Part shown: piece after piece, positions 22,008-27,879 of the stretch
Layout: each line of letters starts with the position of its first letter
Numbering within the stretch: the first letter of the stretch is position 1
DNA from: Vulcanisaeta distributa DSM 14429
GTDB lineage: Archaea > Thermoproteota > Thermoprotei > Thermoproteales > Thermocladiaceae
Length of the DNA: 32,000 nt
Assembly (NCBI RefSeq): GCF_000148385.1
Contig: NC_014537.1
Coordinates: 1,530,001-1,562,000, forward strand
Direction: 5' to 3'
Made by a program: the position numbers and the translations under genes
The notes under the pieces: model-generated
Database searches by the model: none
What the model was told of the DNA's origin: nothing
The model's input: only the letters and a program-made list of their open reading frames with translations

Positions 22008-22973
22008 TTATAAAAACGCACCACTCTCTAAGTACTTAAGTACAACCCCAGCGATTGCACGTGCGAGTGGCGGTGGTACAGCCTCACCTATTTGATTAAA
22101 TTGAGAGTCCTTTGGACCAAAGAATACGTGATCATCAGGAAAACCCATGAGCCTCGCCTGCTCCCTAACAGTTAATACTCTATCCTCAAATGGATGCACA
22201 AAACGCACACTACCCATGACGGTTGGTGCAGGTTTCCATGGATTAAGCCTCACGAAGTTCCTAAACGAGCCTGTGGCACCCCTAAACCTGTAAAGGGCAT
22301 CATCCCAACCAAGCCTTGCTATACCCCTAACCTTCCTATCACTAATGGTCACATACTCATGATTGGGTATCCTAGGGTCCCCAGGTTCGGGCAAATCACC
22401 GATGGCATCCCACACAGTCAACACCCTACCCAGCTTCTCAGGCCTTATCGGTATATTACTAACGAAGACCCTACGCCTAATACTAGGCGTTCCGTAATCC
22501 TCAGCATGAAGCACATTGAAGTATATCCTCTCATAACCAGCCCGGGTAAACTCACTAATCAAGGCATCCCTCAACGGACCATCCATTATGTGAACCACAT
22601 TCTCAAGAACAAAGACCCTAGGTCTCAACTCACCAACTAGTCGAATGAACTCAAGGGTCAGCCTACCCAACTCATCAACATAAAGTCTATCAAGTGGGTC
22701 CCTAGCTCTCCTTGGATTGGTCTCAGTAAATGCCTCACAGGGACTACCACCAATTATCACGTCGGGCCTACCGCCAATGTACTTAATAATGTCCTTACCA
22801 CTAACATTCCTAATATCATCGGTGATCATCACAGCCTCTGGGAAGTTATAACTAAATGTTCGTGCTGCGTTAATATCGACTTCCACGCCAAGGGCCACAT
22901 CAAAACCCACATCCTTAAATCCTCTACTAAATCCTCCTGCCCCTGCGAATAGATCAACTACGGTATACCCCAT
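22008..22973 (-). CDS. DNA (cytosine-5)-methyltransferase
   Basis: It has motif I DLFAGAGGFSRGF, motif IV GGSPCEAF, motif VI VLENV, motif VIII SIRRRVF, a late motif TVREQARLMGFPD, and GEAVPPPLA. Confidence 0.9.
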   Translation of the reverse strand: MGYTVVDLFAGAGGFSRGFKDVGFDVALGVEVDINAARTFSYNFPEAVMITDDIRNVSGKDIIKYIGGRPDVIIGGSPCEAFTETNPRRARDPLDRLYVDELGRLTLEFIRLVGELRPRVFVLENVVHIMDGPLRDALISEFTRAGYERIYFNVLHAEDYGTPSIRRRVFVSNIPIRPEKLGRVLTVWDAIGDLPEPGDPRIPNHEYVTISDRKVRGIARLGWDDALYRFRGATGSFRNFVRLNPWKPAPTVMGSVRFVHPFEDRVLTVREQARLMGFPDDHVFFGPKDSQFNQIGEAVPPPLARAIAGVVLKYLESGAFL

Positions 22974-23008
22974 TACTGCATTATGCGTATTATCTCATTA
23001 TTTTAACC

Positions 23009-23287
23009 CTAATCCTCCTCCTGCTCACTCTCAGTTTCGTAAAGATTATCAAGAAGCTGCTTAACATAGTCCTCCTTAAGCTCCTTCTCCTCCTCACTAG
23101 GTTCCTTCTCCTCATAACTCTCTACAATCACTGCACCCTTCTTCTCAATATTCTTCTTATCAACATAGGACTTGGCGTCACTACTCTTTAGTTCCTCCTC
23201 ATAACCACACCTCTGGCACCTAAGGTAAACCTTTCCCTCCCTCTTCACTGGAACCATCAAACCTCCACATCTAGGACAAAATTTCAT
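23009..23287 (-). CDS. TFS/RpoM (Rpb9)-like protein with an N-terminal zinc ribbon and an acidic C-terminal tail. The C-terminal catalytic ribbon is absent.
   Basis: MKFCPRCGGLMVP...LRCQRCGYEEE matches the N-ribbon of archaeal TFS / RNAP subunit M. The remaining ~50 aa are Glu/Lys-rich and contain no second CxxC pair. A TATA-like tttttaagtaag lies about 28 nt upstream. Confidence 0.6.
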   Translation of the reverse strand: MKFCPRCGGLMVPVKREGKVYLRCQRCGYEEELKSSDAKSYVDKKNIEKKGAVIVESYEEKEPSEEEKELKEDYVKQLLDNLYETESEQEED

Positions 23288-23369
23288 TGCGAATTAACGC
23301 AAGCAAAGAACTTACTTAAAAACCTTATGACCACCTTAACCAGGAATTACACAGTCATGAGGGTTACCG

Positions 23370-23410
23370 CCACACAGCCTCGGCTTGCCGAGTTTGCGTG
23401 TGTTGTGTGG
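23370..23410. other. Extended hairpin with a CUUG-type tetraloop
   Basis: ccacaca (23370-76) pairs with tgtgtgg (23404-10). The inner stem ctcgg/ccgag (23379-83 with 23388-92) closes the loop cttg. Confidence 0.4.
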
Positions 23411-23513
23411 TTTATGGCTGTTACGTTCGTGGGTTGTGAATAATACGTTATGACTAATCGCCGCCATGCGATGCGTTTCTCCGTGAAAGGCTCAACACCG
23501 ATTTCGGGAAGGC

Positions 23514-23521
23514 TATATAAA
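23514..23521 (+). promoter_or_regulatory. Strong TATA-like element (tatataaa) preceded by a purine-rich, BRE-like gggaagg. No ORF lies downstream.
   Basis: Read directly from the sequence. About 25-30 nt downstream begins a GC-rich structured stretch (ggggttgac...). This would fit an ncRNA promoter or a long-leader promoter. Confidence 0.35.
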
Positions 23522-23561
23522 CTACTTAGTTATTTTAGGGGTTGACTGATTTAGGCGATGA

Positions 23562-23615
23562 GCCCCCGAGGTATAGCGCCCGGGATTTGCCTGGGCGAAT
23601 TCCTCGGCTTTGGGT
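23562..23615. other. 54-nt GC-rich three-segment hairpin
   Basis: gccc/gggt (23562-65 with 23612-15), ccgagg/cctcgg (23566-71 with 23602-07) and cgcccggg/cctgggcg (23577-84 with 23590-97) surround the loop atttg. The G-T pairs are consistent with plus-strand RNA. Confidence 0.45.
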
Positions 23616-23737
23616 GATCCACCGCGACCGCTCCCGTGGGTAGTGTAGGGACTCGAGTGATGAAAAGCTCATTGAATGCATATGCAGTAAGTACAATGGC
23701 TATGATAACGATGCCGATGATAATAACAACTCAACTG

Positions 23738-23784
23738 CTTAATTACTTAGCTGTTAAGACTCCTAATCACTTAGCCGTTAAGAT
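23738..23784. repeat. Tandem direct repeat, two 23-nt units with a 24-nt period
   Basis: cttaattacttagctgttaagac (23738-60) and cctaatcacttagccgttaagat (23762-84) are identical at 19 of 23 positions. Confidence 0.8.
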
Positions 23785-23789
23785 GCTTA

Positions 23790-23955
23790 TTCCCCAAGCC
23801 CTTCCCTCGGTCCCACTCCCTCCCTCTCTTCCCGAAGCCGAGGCCTCCCTGGTCAGGGGGGCTCTCGGCACGTGAGGCCGGGCCGTGAGGAAGACGAGCC
23901 CCGAAACGGCAACCAGTAACGGCGGGAAGTTAGGTTTGAGGGAAGGGCTTGGGAA
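23790..23955. other. 166-nt GC-rich nested four-helix element, a candidate structured ncRNA of unknown class
   Basis: Four helices nest in order. The outer helix pairs cccaagcccttccctc (23793-808) with gagggaagggcttggg (23938-53), 16 perfect bp. Then cttcccg (23828-34) pairs with cgggaag (23923-29), ctggt (23849-53) with accag (23912-16), and ggggctc (23858-64) with gagcccc (23896-902). An apical cacg/cgtg stem closes the structure. The 60-nt line starting at 23821 is 43/60 G+C by hand count. Confidence 0.5.
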
Positions 23956-24041
23956 TTGAGTGCCTAAATGCAATTATGTACAGCAGTCCCTAGGCTGAAG
24001 AGGATAAAGTGTGATTAATTCATGTGGAGATTAAGAATTTG

Positions 24042-24059
24042 TTTCACGAAAACGTGAAA
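24042..24059. promoter_or_regulatory. Perfect palindrome tttcacg-aaaa-cgtgaaa, either an operator-like site or a small hairpin
   Basis: A 7-bp inverted repeat with a 4-nt spacer, read directly. It lies in the AT-rich stretch about 180 nt upstream of the ORF at 24241, next to the A/T-rich aaaaagttattaatg. Confidence 0.35.
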
Positions 24060-24099
24060 AAGTTATTAATGAATTCCCCAATACCCTAGCAAAATGGCA

Positions 24100-24211
24100 A
24101 GCAATTCCTGGGGAATTGCTGGATAAGTTGCTTTGTCAAGCCCCGTGGGCTCCTCACGGGGCGCCAACCCATTTTCAGTTCTGGGTGGCACGGCTCCGTG
24201 GGGATCGCCCA
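24100..24211. other. Cluster of four consecutive GC-rich hairpins immediately upstream of the 24241 ORF
   Basis: The stems are agcaattcc/ggaattgct (24100-20), gccccgtg/cacggggc (24140-62, 8 bp with a 7-nt loop), gccaaccca/tgggtggc (24163-89, one bulge), and tggg/ccca (24199-211). Confidence 0.45.
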
Positions 24212-24240
24212 TGGGGCATGAGGCATCAAGGTGAGGGAGT

Positions 24241-25665
24241 ATGGAGGGTGGAGAGAAGCGAATAAACGAGCCAAATAAAAACAAAGGGGAGGGAGAGGGA
24301 CCAAGGAAGGGCAGGGAAATACGCAAGCCACCAAATGAGGGCATCGACGACAACGCACCAAGTGAGGAGGAGGTTAGGGCGGCTATTTTGGAGCTTATTA
24401 AGAGACTGAGGAGGCATGAGGATGTGATTAGGAGTGGTAAGATGTTTAGTGAGATCAAGGCTGAGTTGGGGAGGTTGAGGAATGAGGTTGCGAAGTATGG
24501 CATTGATGGTTTTGAGAGGGTATTTGATGAAATGGAGAAATACGTCATGAGGGTAGAGGAGAAGTTCAAGAGGTACCATGCTAAGGAAATTCAAGGTCTC
24601 GTTGAAGAAATCGAACGGGGACAGATAAAACCAAAGGGAAGATCAATTAGATCTAGGTATATAACCCTGAGTTTTTCAACACCAAGCTATCAAGCAACAT
24701 ATCAAATATTGCTCAAGAAAATTGGGAGCATAACTGTCAAGGCACCCAAAGTTTTGCCGTACGATGTAATTACGCCACTGCAGTGGGGACTACTATTAAG
24801 CGACGCCACGGTGAGGATCTATTACCCAGCTATGGAGACTGTGAGCATGTTTCAGATCATGCTATTTATGTTAGCGTTTCCAGGTAGAATACGAATAGAT
24901 GCTACAAAGCTTGATGTTAATAAAGACGGCGTAAAAATAGTATGGCGTGTAGAATCAAAGGACTGGGACCCACCATCGTTGCCTGAGTGTGAGGATGAGG
25001 ATGAGTGTCAGCAAATTAATGAGGAGGATGCGTATATCGCATTATTTGCAGGTTTGATGGGAGATGGCTCATTTGGTACAATAAGGAGAAGGAATCACGT
25101 TTATCCAAGGATTCGTTTGACGACGACAGAAAAATATAGATGGGAACCGATACTAAAGAGTATAAAGATAAAGTATTATGAAGAACCTTATAAAAATGGC
25201 ATAATAAATATTACGTTTTGTTGTTCATATGCTGTTGAACTAATGCAAAGAATTAAGGGTATCTTTGTAGGAAAAGCACCAATATTGTTAAGATTGCTAG
25301 ATATATTAGTTAATGAAACAAAGATAGAAAGAGTAAGACACATTATGAACATGGAGATTAGGAAGTTGGGAGAGTTTAGTGTGGAATTGCTTGGCTATTT
25401 ATTTCATGTGAATATAAGTGGCAGTTGGAGTATTATGTTCATGAAAAGGATGAGTGATGTAGAGAGAGCGAATGCAATAGCAACAGAGGTCGCGCAATAT
25501 TACGGGCTTAGTAATGATGATATTAAGGTTTATCCTGAGTCCCATGCCATAATAATAAAGCCATCAGGCATACTAAAAATAATAATGAGGGATGAGAAGG
25601 TAAAGGAGGAAACCATAAGAGTACTCTGCAAAAATATCAAGACGAGAAGAGAAAAAGTAAAATAA
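24241..25665 (+). CDS. Free-standing protein with two LAGLIDADG-like motifs and a charged coiled-coil N-terminal extension. It may be a homing-endonuclease-derived protein. The start codon is uncertain.
   Basis: The second motif, DAYIALFAGLMGDGSFGTIRRR, fits the LAGLIDADG helix plus a beta-strand. An upstream degenerate copy (PLQWGLLLSDATVRIYY) lies about 90 aa earlier, as in double-motif monomeric enzymes. The N-terminal ~130 aa are Lys/Glu/Arg-rich. The first ~30 codons overlap a repeated non-coding motif. The 3' two-thirds is AT-rich (18/60 G+C in the line starting at 25141). Confidence 0.55.
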   Translation: MEGGEKRINEPNKNKGEGEGPRKGREIRKPPNEGIDDNAPSEEEVRAAILELIKRLRRHEDVIRSGKMFSEIKAELGRLRNEVAKYGIDGFERVFDEMEKYVMRVEEKFKRYHAKEIQGLVEEIERGQIKPKGRSIRSRYITLSFSTPSYQATYQILLKKIGSITVKAPKVLPYDVITPLQWGLLLSDATVRIYYPAMETVSMFQIMLFMLAFPGRIRIDATKLDVNKDGVKIVWRVESKDWDPPSLPECEDEDECQQINEEDAYIALFAGLMGDGSFGTIRRRNHVYPRIRLTTTEKYRWEPILKSIKIKYYEEPYKNGIINITFCCSYAVELMQRIKGIFVGKAPILLRLLDILVNETKIERVRHIMNMEIRKLGEFSVELLGYLFHVNISGSWSIMFMKRMSDVERANAIATEVAQYYGLSNDDIKVYPESHAIIIKPSGILKIIMRDEKVKEETIRVLCKNIKTRREKVK

Positions 25666-25711
25666 TTAGCATTTTGAAGAAAGTCATACCCACAAAGGGG
25701 GCGGCCGCGGT

Positions 25712-26311
25712 ATGTCTGAGTCGCCAGCTACTCAGGAGAACTGGATAGGCGTCAATGGTAGGTCGGTTAGGTATCTGGTATATGGTGATGGTAAACCCAT
25801 GGTCATGGTTCATGGATATAACTTCAACGCTAATGACTGGATTAACTGCTGCGGTAATGACTTCCCTGGGTTTAAAATATATGCGTTGGATATGCCCTAT
25901 GGACCTAGGTCGAGGAGTGATCACTTCATGCCTAAGGATGATAATGATTATGCCAATCACCTACATGCCATAATTAAGGCGTTGGGCATTGAAAACCCGA
26001 TACTTATTGGCGCGAGTTTGGGTGGCGAGACCGTACTTAGGTACCTAGCGCTTAACTACCCAGCGACTGCGGGTATAGTTATTGGTCCCGTGAGGGTACC
26101 CAGTATTGACCTGTCAAGGATAAGGGTTCCCGTAATGGGTATTTGGGGGAGTAATGATAAGGTCTCGGGTAGGGAGAACATGGAGGCCATGAGGAGGGCC
26201 GGCTTTAGGGTTGAGGTGATCAATGGAGCTGGTCACCCTGCTTACCTCGATAAGCCCAGGGAATTCGTGAGGTTAGTGCTTGATTTTTTAAGGTCCATTA
26301 ATGTCATTTAG
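25712..26311 (+). CDS. Alpha/beta-fold hydrolase
   Basis: It has HGYNF (oxyanion region), the nucleophile elbow GASLGG (GxSxG), and a C-terminal GAGHPAYLDKP (catalytic His region). At 199 aa it is compact. Confidence 0.75.
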   Translation: MSESPATQENWIGVNGRSVRYLVYGDGKPMVMVHGYNFNANDWINCCGNDFPGFKIYALDMPYGPRSRSDHFMPKDDNDYANHLHAIIKALGIENPILIGASLGGETVLRYLALNYPATAGIVIGPVRVPSIDLSRIRVPVMGIWGSNDKVSGRENMEAMRRAGFRVEVINGAGHPAYLDKPREFVRLVLDFLRSINVI

Positions 26312-27780: not shown

Positions 27781-27879
27781 TGGAGCCCCGGCCGGGATTC
27801 GAACCCGGGACCTCCCGCTTACAAGGCTTGCACGGGGCTGCCGCCCCAGGGCGCTCCGACCAGGCTGAGCTACCGGGGC
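27781..27879 (-). tRNA. tRNA-Thr (anticodon TGT) with an encoded CCA end and a 21-nt intron inside the anticodon stem (about position 29/30; intron at 27828-27848)
   Basis: The reverse complement reads GCCCCGG TA GCTC AGCCTGGTCG GAGC G CCC[TGGGGCGGCAGCCCCGTGCAA]GC CTTGTAA GCGGG AGGTC CCGGG TTCGAAT CCCGG CCGGGGC T CCA. A TATA-like cttaaaatt lies about 25 nt upstream. Confidence 0.9.

Follow-up and report, generated by a model that had tools for sequence, protein, structure and literature searches.

The window analysed here is a stretch of 32,000 nucleotides (nt) of the archaeon Vulcanisaeta distributa DSM 14429 (NC_014537.1, positions 1,530,001 to 1,562,000), and all coordinates refer to its first position. 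Within it, a 953-bp gap is flanked by the gene of an RPB9-type zinc-ribbon protein on the minus strand (23009-23287; Pfam Zn_ribbon_RPB9, E 4.7e-9) and by an open reading frame (ORF) of 474 amino acids (aa) on the plus strand (24241-25665). An original prediction, made without database searches, had described this gap as an ORF-free island of about 950 bp, dense in hairpins, and had offered two readings, one or more undescribed structured RNAs or a very long leader of the LAGLIDADG-like gene downstream. Our analysis places the island in a mobile insertion of ~2.37 kb, of which it forms the non-coding 5' part, and we give roughly even chances to its being a long structured 5' leader, or a cis element, of the LAGLIDADG gene with a presumed role at the RNA level.

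Inside the gap, no ORF is longer than 79 aa; this one and the next, of 68 aa, lack Pfam matches; the remaining spacers in the window measure ~0-190 bp between ORFs of at least 80 aa. Measured in 100-nt segments, the GC content swings between 63% at 23550, 71% at 23800, 65% at 23850 and 63% at 24150 on the one side and 36% at 23650, 38% at 23950 and 33% at 24000 on the other, compared with ~45% in the adjoining genes. Folding of 23367-24240 gave a minimum free energy (MFE) of -347.6 kcal/mol on the plus strand versus -296.8 +/- 6.5 in dinucleotide shuffles (z -7.8) and a z-score of -5.2 on the minus strand. The original description of the gap, of the short spacers elsewhere, of the alternating composition and of the hairpin density is thereby confirmed. 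Its recurring decamer stood at two of three places: CYCCGTGGG is present at 24141 and 24194, and the sequence at 23631 is merely the 8-mer CCCGTGGG. The count of two compares with 0.37 expected and was reached by 5 of 100 shuffles.

A strain-specific insertion and its empty site in relatives

Related contigs were gathered via orthologues of the zinc-ribbon protein and represent three Vulcanisaeta lineages in seven assemblies, namely Vulcanisaeta sp. JCM 14467 (L003, L004), four near-identical metagenome-assembled genomes (L005-L008) and GCA_001316005 (L009, plus L010). The window and all relatives share the same gene order (UDG, PUA, tRNA synthetase, peptidase M19, FBPase, C5 methylase and zinc ribbon), followed divergently by an abhydrolase gene, a 172-aa gene and a 274-aa gene. 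Between the zinc-ribbon and abhydrolase genes, the relatives have only 118-166 bp (seven assemblies, L003-L009). A blastn comparison showed that homology to L003 stops at 23366 and resumes at 25736; this break in collinearity means that the island and the 474-aa ORF form one strain-specific unit. In the comparison with relatives, the insertion shows no target-site duplication; instead, 63 nt of host spacer were replaced. The inserted DNA includes the ATG of the abhydrolase gene (25712) and ~8 codons at its start, and homology to the relatives begins at 25736. The insertion therefore replaced the native promoter and start of this gene, which is now probably read through from the element.

These data also bear on the two readings of the original prediction. 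A resident, vertically inherited Vulcanisaeta non-coding RNA (ncRNA) gene is rejected, as the region is absent at the syntenic position in L003-L009 and belongs to a mobile insertion. The leader reading fits the anatomy of the element, with a family promoter, a conserved piece of ~700 nt and an ATG preceded by a Shine-Dalgarno (SD)-like motif. The features of the insertion are as follows.

23288-23366, no strand: what is left of the host intergenic region, zinc-ribbon promoter side, collinear with L003, L009 and L005 up to 23329-23366
23367-25735, plus strand: strain-specific insertion, 2369 nt in place of 63 nt of host spacer
23371-23400, no strand: GC-rich left-junction hairpin CACACAGCCTCGGC/GCCGAGTTTGCGTG (inverted repeat I18), no homologue found in other loci
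23408-23542, plus strand: upstream or promoter region of the family including the TATA box at 23513-23521, 68% identical to L013 4870-4999
23545-23645, minus strand: inverted copy of the family 3'-terminal block, core 23615-23643; in reverse complement, it can be aligned with the CACCCACAAAGGGGGCGGCCGCGG tail block of six genes of the family
23646-24240, plus strand: hairpin-rich module (the putative leader) without coding signal, 77-80% identical to L017 10-720, upstream of P0021
23786-23960, plus strand: large hairpin H3, in which pyrimidine block P (23786-23826) pairs with purine block R1 (23920-23961); 23-nt arms, 87% complementary
24042-24059, plus strand: H4, 7-bp palindrome TTTCACG-NNNN-CGTGAAA; arms invariant in four sequences, loop AAAA, AATA or TATT
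24100-24120, plus strand: H5, hairpin AGCAATTCC-TGG-GGAATTGCT; mostly C-G to U-G and A-U to G-U changes, one mismatch in some copies
24140-24217, plus strand: H6, long hairpin with four CCCCGTGGG/CCCACGGGG-type motifs in alternating orientation and a conserved stem
24230-24243, plus strand: SD-like GGTGAGGGAG, then ATG; GGTGA/GGTGAT lies 7-8 nt ahead of the ATG in the window and L017
24241-25665, plus strand: 474-aa ORF with a predicted double-LAGLIDADG fold (59 homologues, AlphaFold model, Foldseek), frameshifted near 25630-25645
24285-24319, plus strand: R2, purine block in codons 15-26 and alternative partner of P, invariant in five sequences
25686-25717, plus strand: family 3'-terminal block (PTKGAAA) at the right end of the insertion, conserved across elements

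Mosaic anatomy and conservation of the module

The original prediction had noted a strong TATA-like box with no ORF downstream of it, and the box is indeed present as CTATATAAA at 23513-23521. The homologous segment in L013 (4870-4999) stops exactly at the ATG of family member P0077, and the core around the TATA box (23487-23519) recurs 35-65 nt ahead of the ORFs in L011, L015 and L016; taken over the other family members, the homologous region sits ~25-65 nt ahead of the start codon. Judged by this homology, the box is the promoter of the family, here separated from its own ORF. The tail block CACCCACAAAGGGGGCGGCCGCGG, which encodes PTKGAAA, is repeated in inverted orientation on the left with a 3-nt deletion. 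The duplex of 23615-23643 with 25686-25717 has a free energy (dG) of -42.1 kcal/mol, which ranks first among 3186 segments tested across the 32 kb, ahead of -36.2 for the next unrelated one. At the right end, 25688-25710 is 100% identical in L017 and L019, though the proteins of these two elements are ~25% identical. In L013 and L018 the identity is ~88-92%, and in L020 the block has a single difference, AAAGG to AGAGG. L013, which has no module, carries the 3' block with no upstream partner.

The module itself is found in other elements as well. Over its 3' half, L018, L019 and L020 are 78-83% identical to the window, and the proteins encoded behind the module in the four metagenomic contigs L017-L020 are ~25% identical to that of the window. 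Decayed mobile-element debris, which the original prediction had considered for a region lacking conservation, is not compatible with a module that is 78-83% identical in four other elements with ORFs this divergent. The conservation extends from the module into the first 26-47 codons of the ORF, and the recombination breakpoints vary by copy, lying at 24318 versus L017 and at 24381 versus L018. The module-bearing members have an N-terminal peptide in common (M..NKNxGEGEGPRxGRE), which is disordered in the AlphaFold model. The SD-like motif ahead of the start codon is complementary to the 3' end of the 16S rRNA; pairing of the motif itself within the leader is not conserved among the copies.

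Searches for copies beyond these found none. Scans of JGI metagenome contigs were empty, and querying with the N-terminal leader peptide in a word-based search produced no match at E<=10. In a species-representative genome collection, an exact 22-mer of the window and a protein pattern remained unmatched, the source sequence included. Since not even the window's own 22-mer was matched, this collection lacks or masks this part of DSM 14429, and absence there is weak evidence. Separately, the contigs L017-L020 (1.5-2.3 kb, 13-33x coverage) all start inside the module at different points, a pattern resembling assembly breaks at repeated or multi-variant sequence.

Folding propensity is also strong in L017, with an overall z-score of -8.9. 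H3 (23784-23962) folds with an MFE of -96.1 (z -4.8), and its L017 counterpart of 261 nt reaches -161 (z -9.7). In the main stem of H6, 18 of 22 pairs are unvarying and the 5' arm is invariant over 33-36 nt. A covariance model of H6, run against 157 kb of Vulcanisaeta DNA, matched module-bearing loci only.

Block P has two possible partners, R1 within the module and R2 inside the coding region, and the two pairings are mutually exclusive. The duplex free energies are -51.6 (P-R1) and -58.0 kcal/mol (P-R2) in the window and -67.9 and -61.3 kcal/mol, respectively, in L017. Across the whole 32 kb, no other segment pairs with P as well as R1 and R2 do, which holds for the window and for L017 alike; the control mean is -13.7 (standard deviation 7.2). 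The R2 sequence AAGGGGAGGGAGAGGGACCAAG is unchanged in five sequences, third codon positions included. In a four-sequence alignment of the 3' half of the module, 18 of 108 paired columns vary versus 66 of 115 unpaired ones (Fisher p = 2.5e-10); the loops of the hairpins vary and the stems do not. The higher conservation of stems than of linkers and the freezing of R2 at synonymous sites both argue for constraint. Where pairs do vary, they mostly toggle G-C or A-U with G-U on the plus strand.

The downstream gene and its LAGLIDADG family

The original prediction had called the downstream gene LAGLIDADG-like, and structure prediction bears this out. A word-based search with the 474-aa protein returned only the self-match. 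By phmmer against 1.84 billion cluster representatives, we obtained 59 relatives, 29 of them at E<=1e-10 and mostly of 450-520 aa. All named relatives come from Vulcanisaeta, including Vdis_2482 of the same genome, and the others from hot-spring metagenome contigs; the family members occupy unrelated loci. An alignment of 30 members contains two LAGLIDADG-like motifs with D188, Q205, D275 and G276 invariant. D188 and D275, conserved in 30 of 30, are the Asp residues at the catalytic position, that is, the acidic residue closing each LAGLIDADG motif.

The AlphaFold (AF2) model built from the family alignment (predicted local distance difference test score, pLDDT, 86.5; predicted template modelling score, pTM, 0.79; residues 1-35 disordered) contains two LAGLIDADG folds (alpha-beta-beta-alpha-beta-beta-alpha) in a single chain. 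Its best Foldseek matches are E-DreI, the archaeal intron endonuclease I-Tsp061I, the bI3 maturase, I-AniI, WhiA and I-SceI, and the top 50 consist almost entirely of LAGLIDADG enzymes, maturases or WhiA (probability 0.72-1.00, best 1.00). No Pfam model matched the window protein, but member P0053 matches LAGLIDADG_3 at 27.9 bits versus a cut-off of 22.5. The PaRep2b model matches 1 of 30 members, weakly (E 2.5e-4) and below any useful threshold. Altogether, the model predicts that the 474-aa protein is a LAGLIDADG-fold protein of the homing-endonuclease type.

The C-terminus typical of the family (QDEKRKSKIISILKKVIPTKGAAAVC) continues in frame +2 beyond the annotated stop (hmmsearch E 1.7e-6). 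Two independent read sets, SRR060963 and SRR3924012, yield the identical 474-aa product; the frameshift is therefore not an assembly error of one data set.

Other copies of the family show intact as well as broken states. In Vulcanisaeta sp. JCM 14467, an intact copy (L013 5001-6576) stops 8 nt before a tRNA-Asp gene, and a fragmentary second copy (L013 9390-10190; hmmsearch E 2.6e-31 to the C-terminal part of the family) lies inverted 3 kb away, so that the two flank the hemerythrin, Thi4 and PHO4 genes. The paralogue Vdis_2482 (L012 5001-6619) is split into ORFs of 422 and 105 aa, has only 111 bp upstream and no leader module, and is another decaying copy.

Leader hypothesis, rival explanations and related systems

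Several identities of the region were considered and rejected. With Rfam covariance models, 23288-24240 had no match at gathering thresholds (tRNA, rRNA, RNase P including type T, SRP, C/D and H/ACA small RNAs, group I and II introns and riboswitches), and at E<=10 only noise appeared, namely SNORD24 and miRNA models at 12-20 bits versus cut-offs of 38-90; ARAGORN found no tRNA in the same interval. On these negatives, a known RNA family is rejected; the original prediction could not match one either. An ORB-like CTCCGTGGG motif, AT-rich blocks, divergent genes and a local GC-skew minimum raised the idea of a replication origin, which was dismissed because the region is absent from related genomes and the repeated motif belongs to the tail block of the mobile family and to H6. 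A decayed protein gene is likewise rejected: a six-frame comparison of the module with the LAGLIDADG family profile showed no similarity, and the ORFs of the module have no Pfam matches. One ORF of 67-72 aa (MKSSLNAYA…GALGT; window 23660-23875, L017 20-223) is open in both copies with its frame kept across indels. Its differences fall at the three codon positions as 16/11/17, with 10 synonymous versus 21 non-synonymous codon changes, and owing to this lack of codon-position bias it is probably not coding.

Phage or plasmid origin was rejected, too: the whole insertion had no blastn match among 50,697 phage records and 72,556 plasmids, and IMG/VR contained no match for the 474-aa protein or for three DNA patterns of the insertion. 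For introns, no bulge-helix-bulge (BHB) motif and no group I or II core was found. The end-to-end helix (23615-23643/25686-25717) has a single 3-nt bulge with 7 and 8 bp on either side, and the base of H3 has no staggered bulges. A BHB motif (two 3-nt bulges on opposite strands with a 4-bp helix between them) was not seen in the helices inspected, without an exhaustive scan for it. Finally, a GAAAAAGTAAAATAA match to the host spacer, first taken for a junction remnant, was judged coincidental because it lies inside family-homologous coding sequence (EKRKSKII).

Two observations concern other genes of the window. The C5 cytosine DNA methylase gene adjoins the RPB9-like zinc-ribbon gene in all Vulcanisaeta lineages examined (window 22008-23287, L003-L009); no neighbouring restriction enzyme is evident, and the enzyme may be an orphan methylase. 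Two tRNA genes of ~96-99 nt on the minus strand (1376-1474 and 27781-27879) appear to contain introns, as is typical of Thermoproteales; ARAGORN misreads the anticodon of one of them as 'ggcg', and the Rfam tRNA model scores both at 43-47 bits.

How might the module work? According to the leader hypothesis, transcription would start ~25 nt downstream of the family TATA box, near 23545, and produce an mRNA with a very stable, hairpin-rich leader of ~700 nt, containing the inverted tail block and H3-H6 before the SD-led ATG at 24241. Such a leader would be a conserved cis-acting module, exchanged between divergent members of the family through recombination. Most likely it would keep the expression of the nuclease-like protein controlled or limited, restraining or timing a potentially harmful nuclease. 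A candidate switch is provided by P, whose pairing with R1 would close H3 and whose alternative partner would be R2 in codons 15-26.

A number of findings weigh against this hypothesis. The stability of H3 is almost equal on both strands, and some of the pairs break between copies. Covariation is weak: RNAalifold reported double changes in 2 of 50 pairs, and in a refined alignment with 97% of cells paired and 2-5 sequences, double changes in 3 of 54 pairs were reached by 29 of 500 shuffles. The compensatory changes are thus too few to prove an RNA structure. The comparison of G-U with A-C changes, which points to the plus strand, is confounded by base composition, as the sense strand of ordinary genes has this bias as well. 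For the 5' half of the module, only two sequences (window and L017) are available. Furthermore, the module is confined to some of the family members. P0015, which is the nearest relative at the protein level, has neither the module nor the N-terminal peptide, and its promoter lies directly before the ATG; the protein can therefore do without the module. With its ORF frameshifted near the 3' end, the window copy may also be decaying.

The strand symmetry of H3 is what would be expected if the conserved blocks acted as DNA, that is, as (sub)terminal inverted repeats and as palindromes to be bound or cut, required in cis when the element moves or recombines and recognised by the LAGLIDADG-fold protein or a host factor, with the hairpins as a by-product. 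We regard this explanation as unlikely. It accounts for the inverted copy of the 3' block near the left end, whose duplex with the right end is the window's best, and for the full identity of the 3' block between elements with ~25% identical proteins, but the inverted block on the left is set back by 250 nt from the insertion boundary, and the module-less L013 has the 3' block without an upstream partner. The P-R1 and P-R2 pairings resemble terminal inverted repeats of 25-33 bp, H4 is a 7-4-7 palindrome with variable spacer, and H6 consists of two pseudo-palindromes of 22-26 bp, a size that matches LAGLIDADG target sites. However, the insertion replaced 63 nt without a target-site duplication, a single DNA specificity is unlikely for proteins at 25% identity, and LAGLIDADG proteins are, to our knowledge, not known as transposases. 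PaREP2b relatives have been termed putative transposons (PMC3558965), which would be in line with such a lifestyle.

Another view, which we consider rather improbable, is that all or part of the module is a nested non-autonomous element (similar to a miniature inverted-repeat transposable element, with P/R1 or P/R2 as ends) or a mosaic of mobile fragments, functionless and spread by gene conversion. The region is demonstrably mosaic, being assembled from a promoter piece, an inverted tail fragment and the module; family copies are often broken (the split Vdis_2482, the L013 fragment, the frameshift in the window); the breakpoints differ by copy, as given above; and H3 looks like an element of 175-257 bp with inverted ends of 23-33 bp. 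Yet all five elements carry the module at one and the same in-frame position, its conservation is biased towards stems with R2 frozen at synonymous sites, and neither the window nor 157 kb of other Vulcanisaeta DNA holds a second P-type repeat or H6. By analogy, the module might also be an independent, trans-acting structured RNA gene within the element, for instance an RNA partner of the LAGLIDADG-fold protein. A structured non-coding region upstream of a single nuclease-like ORF is indeed the architecture of maturase-intron ribonucleoproteins (RNPs) and of the IS110 and IscB ncRNAs, folding z-scores are strong, GC-rich stems stand in an AT-richer context, and two RNA-binding maturases, bI3 and I-AniI, are among the structures closest to that of the protein. 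We nevertheless think this very unlikely: most family members, including the closest one, do without the module, no terminator-like site separates it from the ORF, the conserved block runs on into the coding region, and an Rfam match is missing along with strong covariation. A broader proposal, that the module stands for a new large structured RNA class of Thermoproteales mobile LAGLIDADG elements working with the LAGLIDADG-fold protein (as a maturase-like RNP partner, as a P-R1/P-R2 switch gating expression, or as a mobility RNA), is speculative, and we place little confidence in it.

Selfish nuclease genes are well known, and the element can be compared with several of them. It shares with the intron-encoded or free-standing LAGLIDADG genes of archaea (I-Tsp061I, I-DmoI and I-Vdi141I of Thermoproteales rRNA introns) the double-LAGLIDADG fold with two motifs and invariant Asp, the presence or absence at an otherwise conserved site, and divergent copies at different loci. 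Unlike these, the proteins of the window family have ~480-520 aa with extra N-terminal helical, beta and C-terminal domains, and nuclease activity is a prediction only; the element lies in no intron or intein and has a conserved putative leader of ~700 nt and conserved terminal blocks. In phage homing-endonuclease genes (I-TevI, mobE), translation is controlled by RNA secondary structure, with short hairpins sequestering the ribosome-binding site. A structured leader ahead of a selfish nuclease gene is a trait that both share, and a competing helix is plausible here; in contrast to the phage genes, the leader would measure ~700 nt and the alternative pairing falls in codons 15-26 instead of the SD motif. 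The IS110 bridge RNA, the IscB/TnpB omega RNA and HEARO resemble the module in that a large structured non-coding segment adjoins the single ORF of a mobile element, but there is no sequence or Rfam match, the protein class is another one, and the module is optional within the family. We know of no description of a free-standing archaeal LAGLIDADG element with a conserved, very stable non-coding module of ~700 nt and terminal blocks. The repetitive PaREP2b family of Pyrobaculum (Pfam PF07775), called 'putative transposons' in PMC3558965, is similar as a multi-copy, lineage-restricted Thermoproteales ORF family in variable genome regions. The weak hit of a single member mentioned above does not extend to the window protein, however, and in the text covered no structured leader is described for PaREP2b.

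For annotation, the region should not be labelled as a host ncRNA gene. The 'orphan' 474-aa ORF now has a family and a predicted fold, and the neighbouring hydrolase gene is one whose promoter and start codon were replaced by an insertion. If the module acts as RNA, it would be an addition to the very short list of large structured RNAs from Crenarchaeota and would link LAGLIDADG proteins to RNA beyond group I introns. Action as DNA would instead point to a transposon-like lifestyle for a LAGLIDADG family, possibly including the PaREP2-type repeats that shape Thermoproteales genomes.

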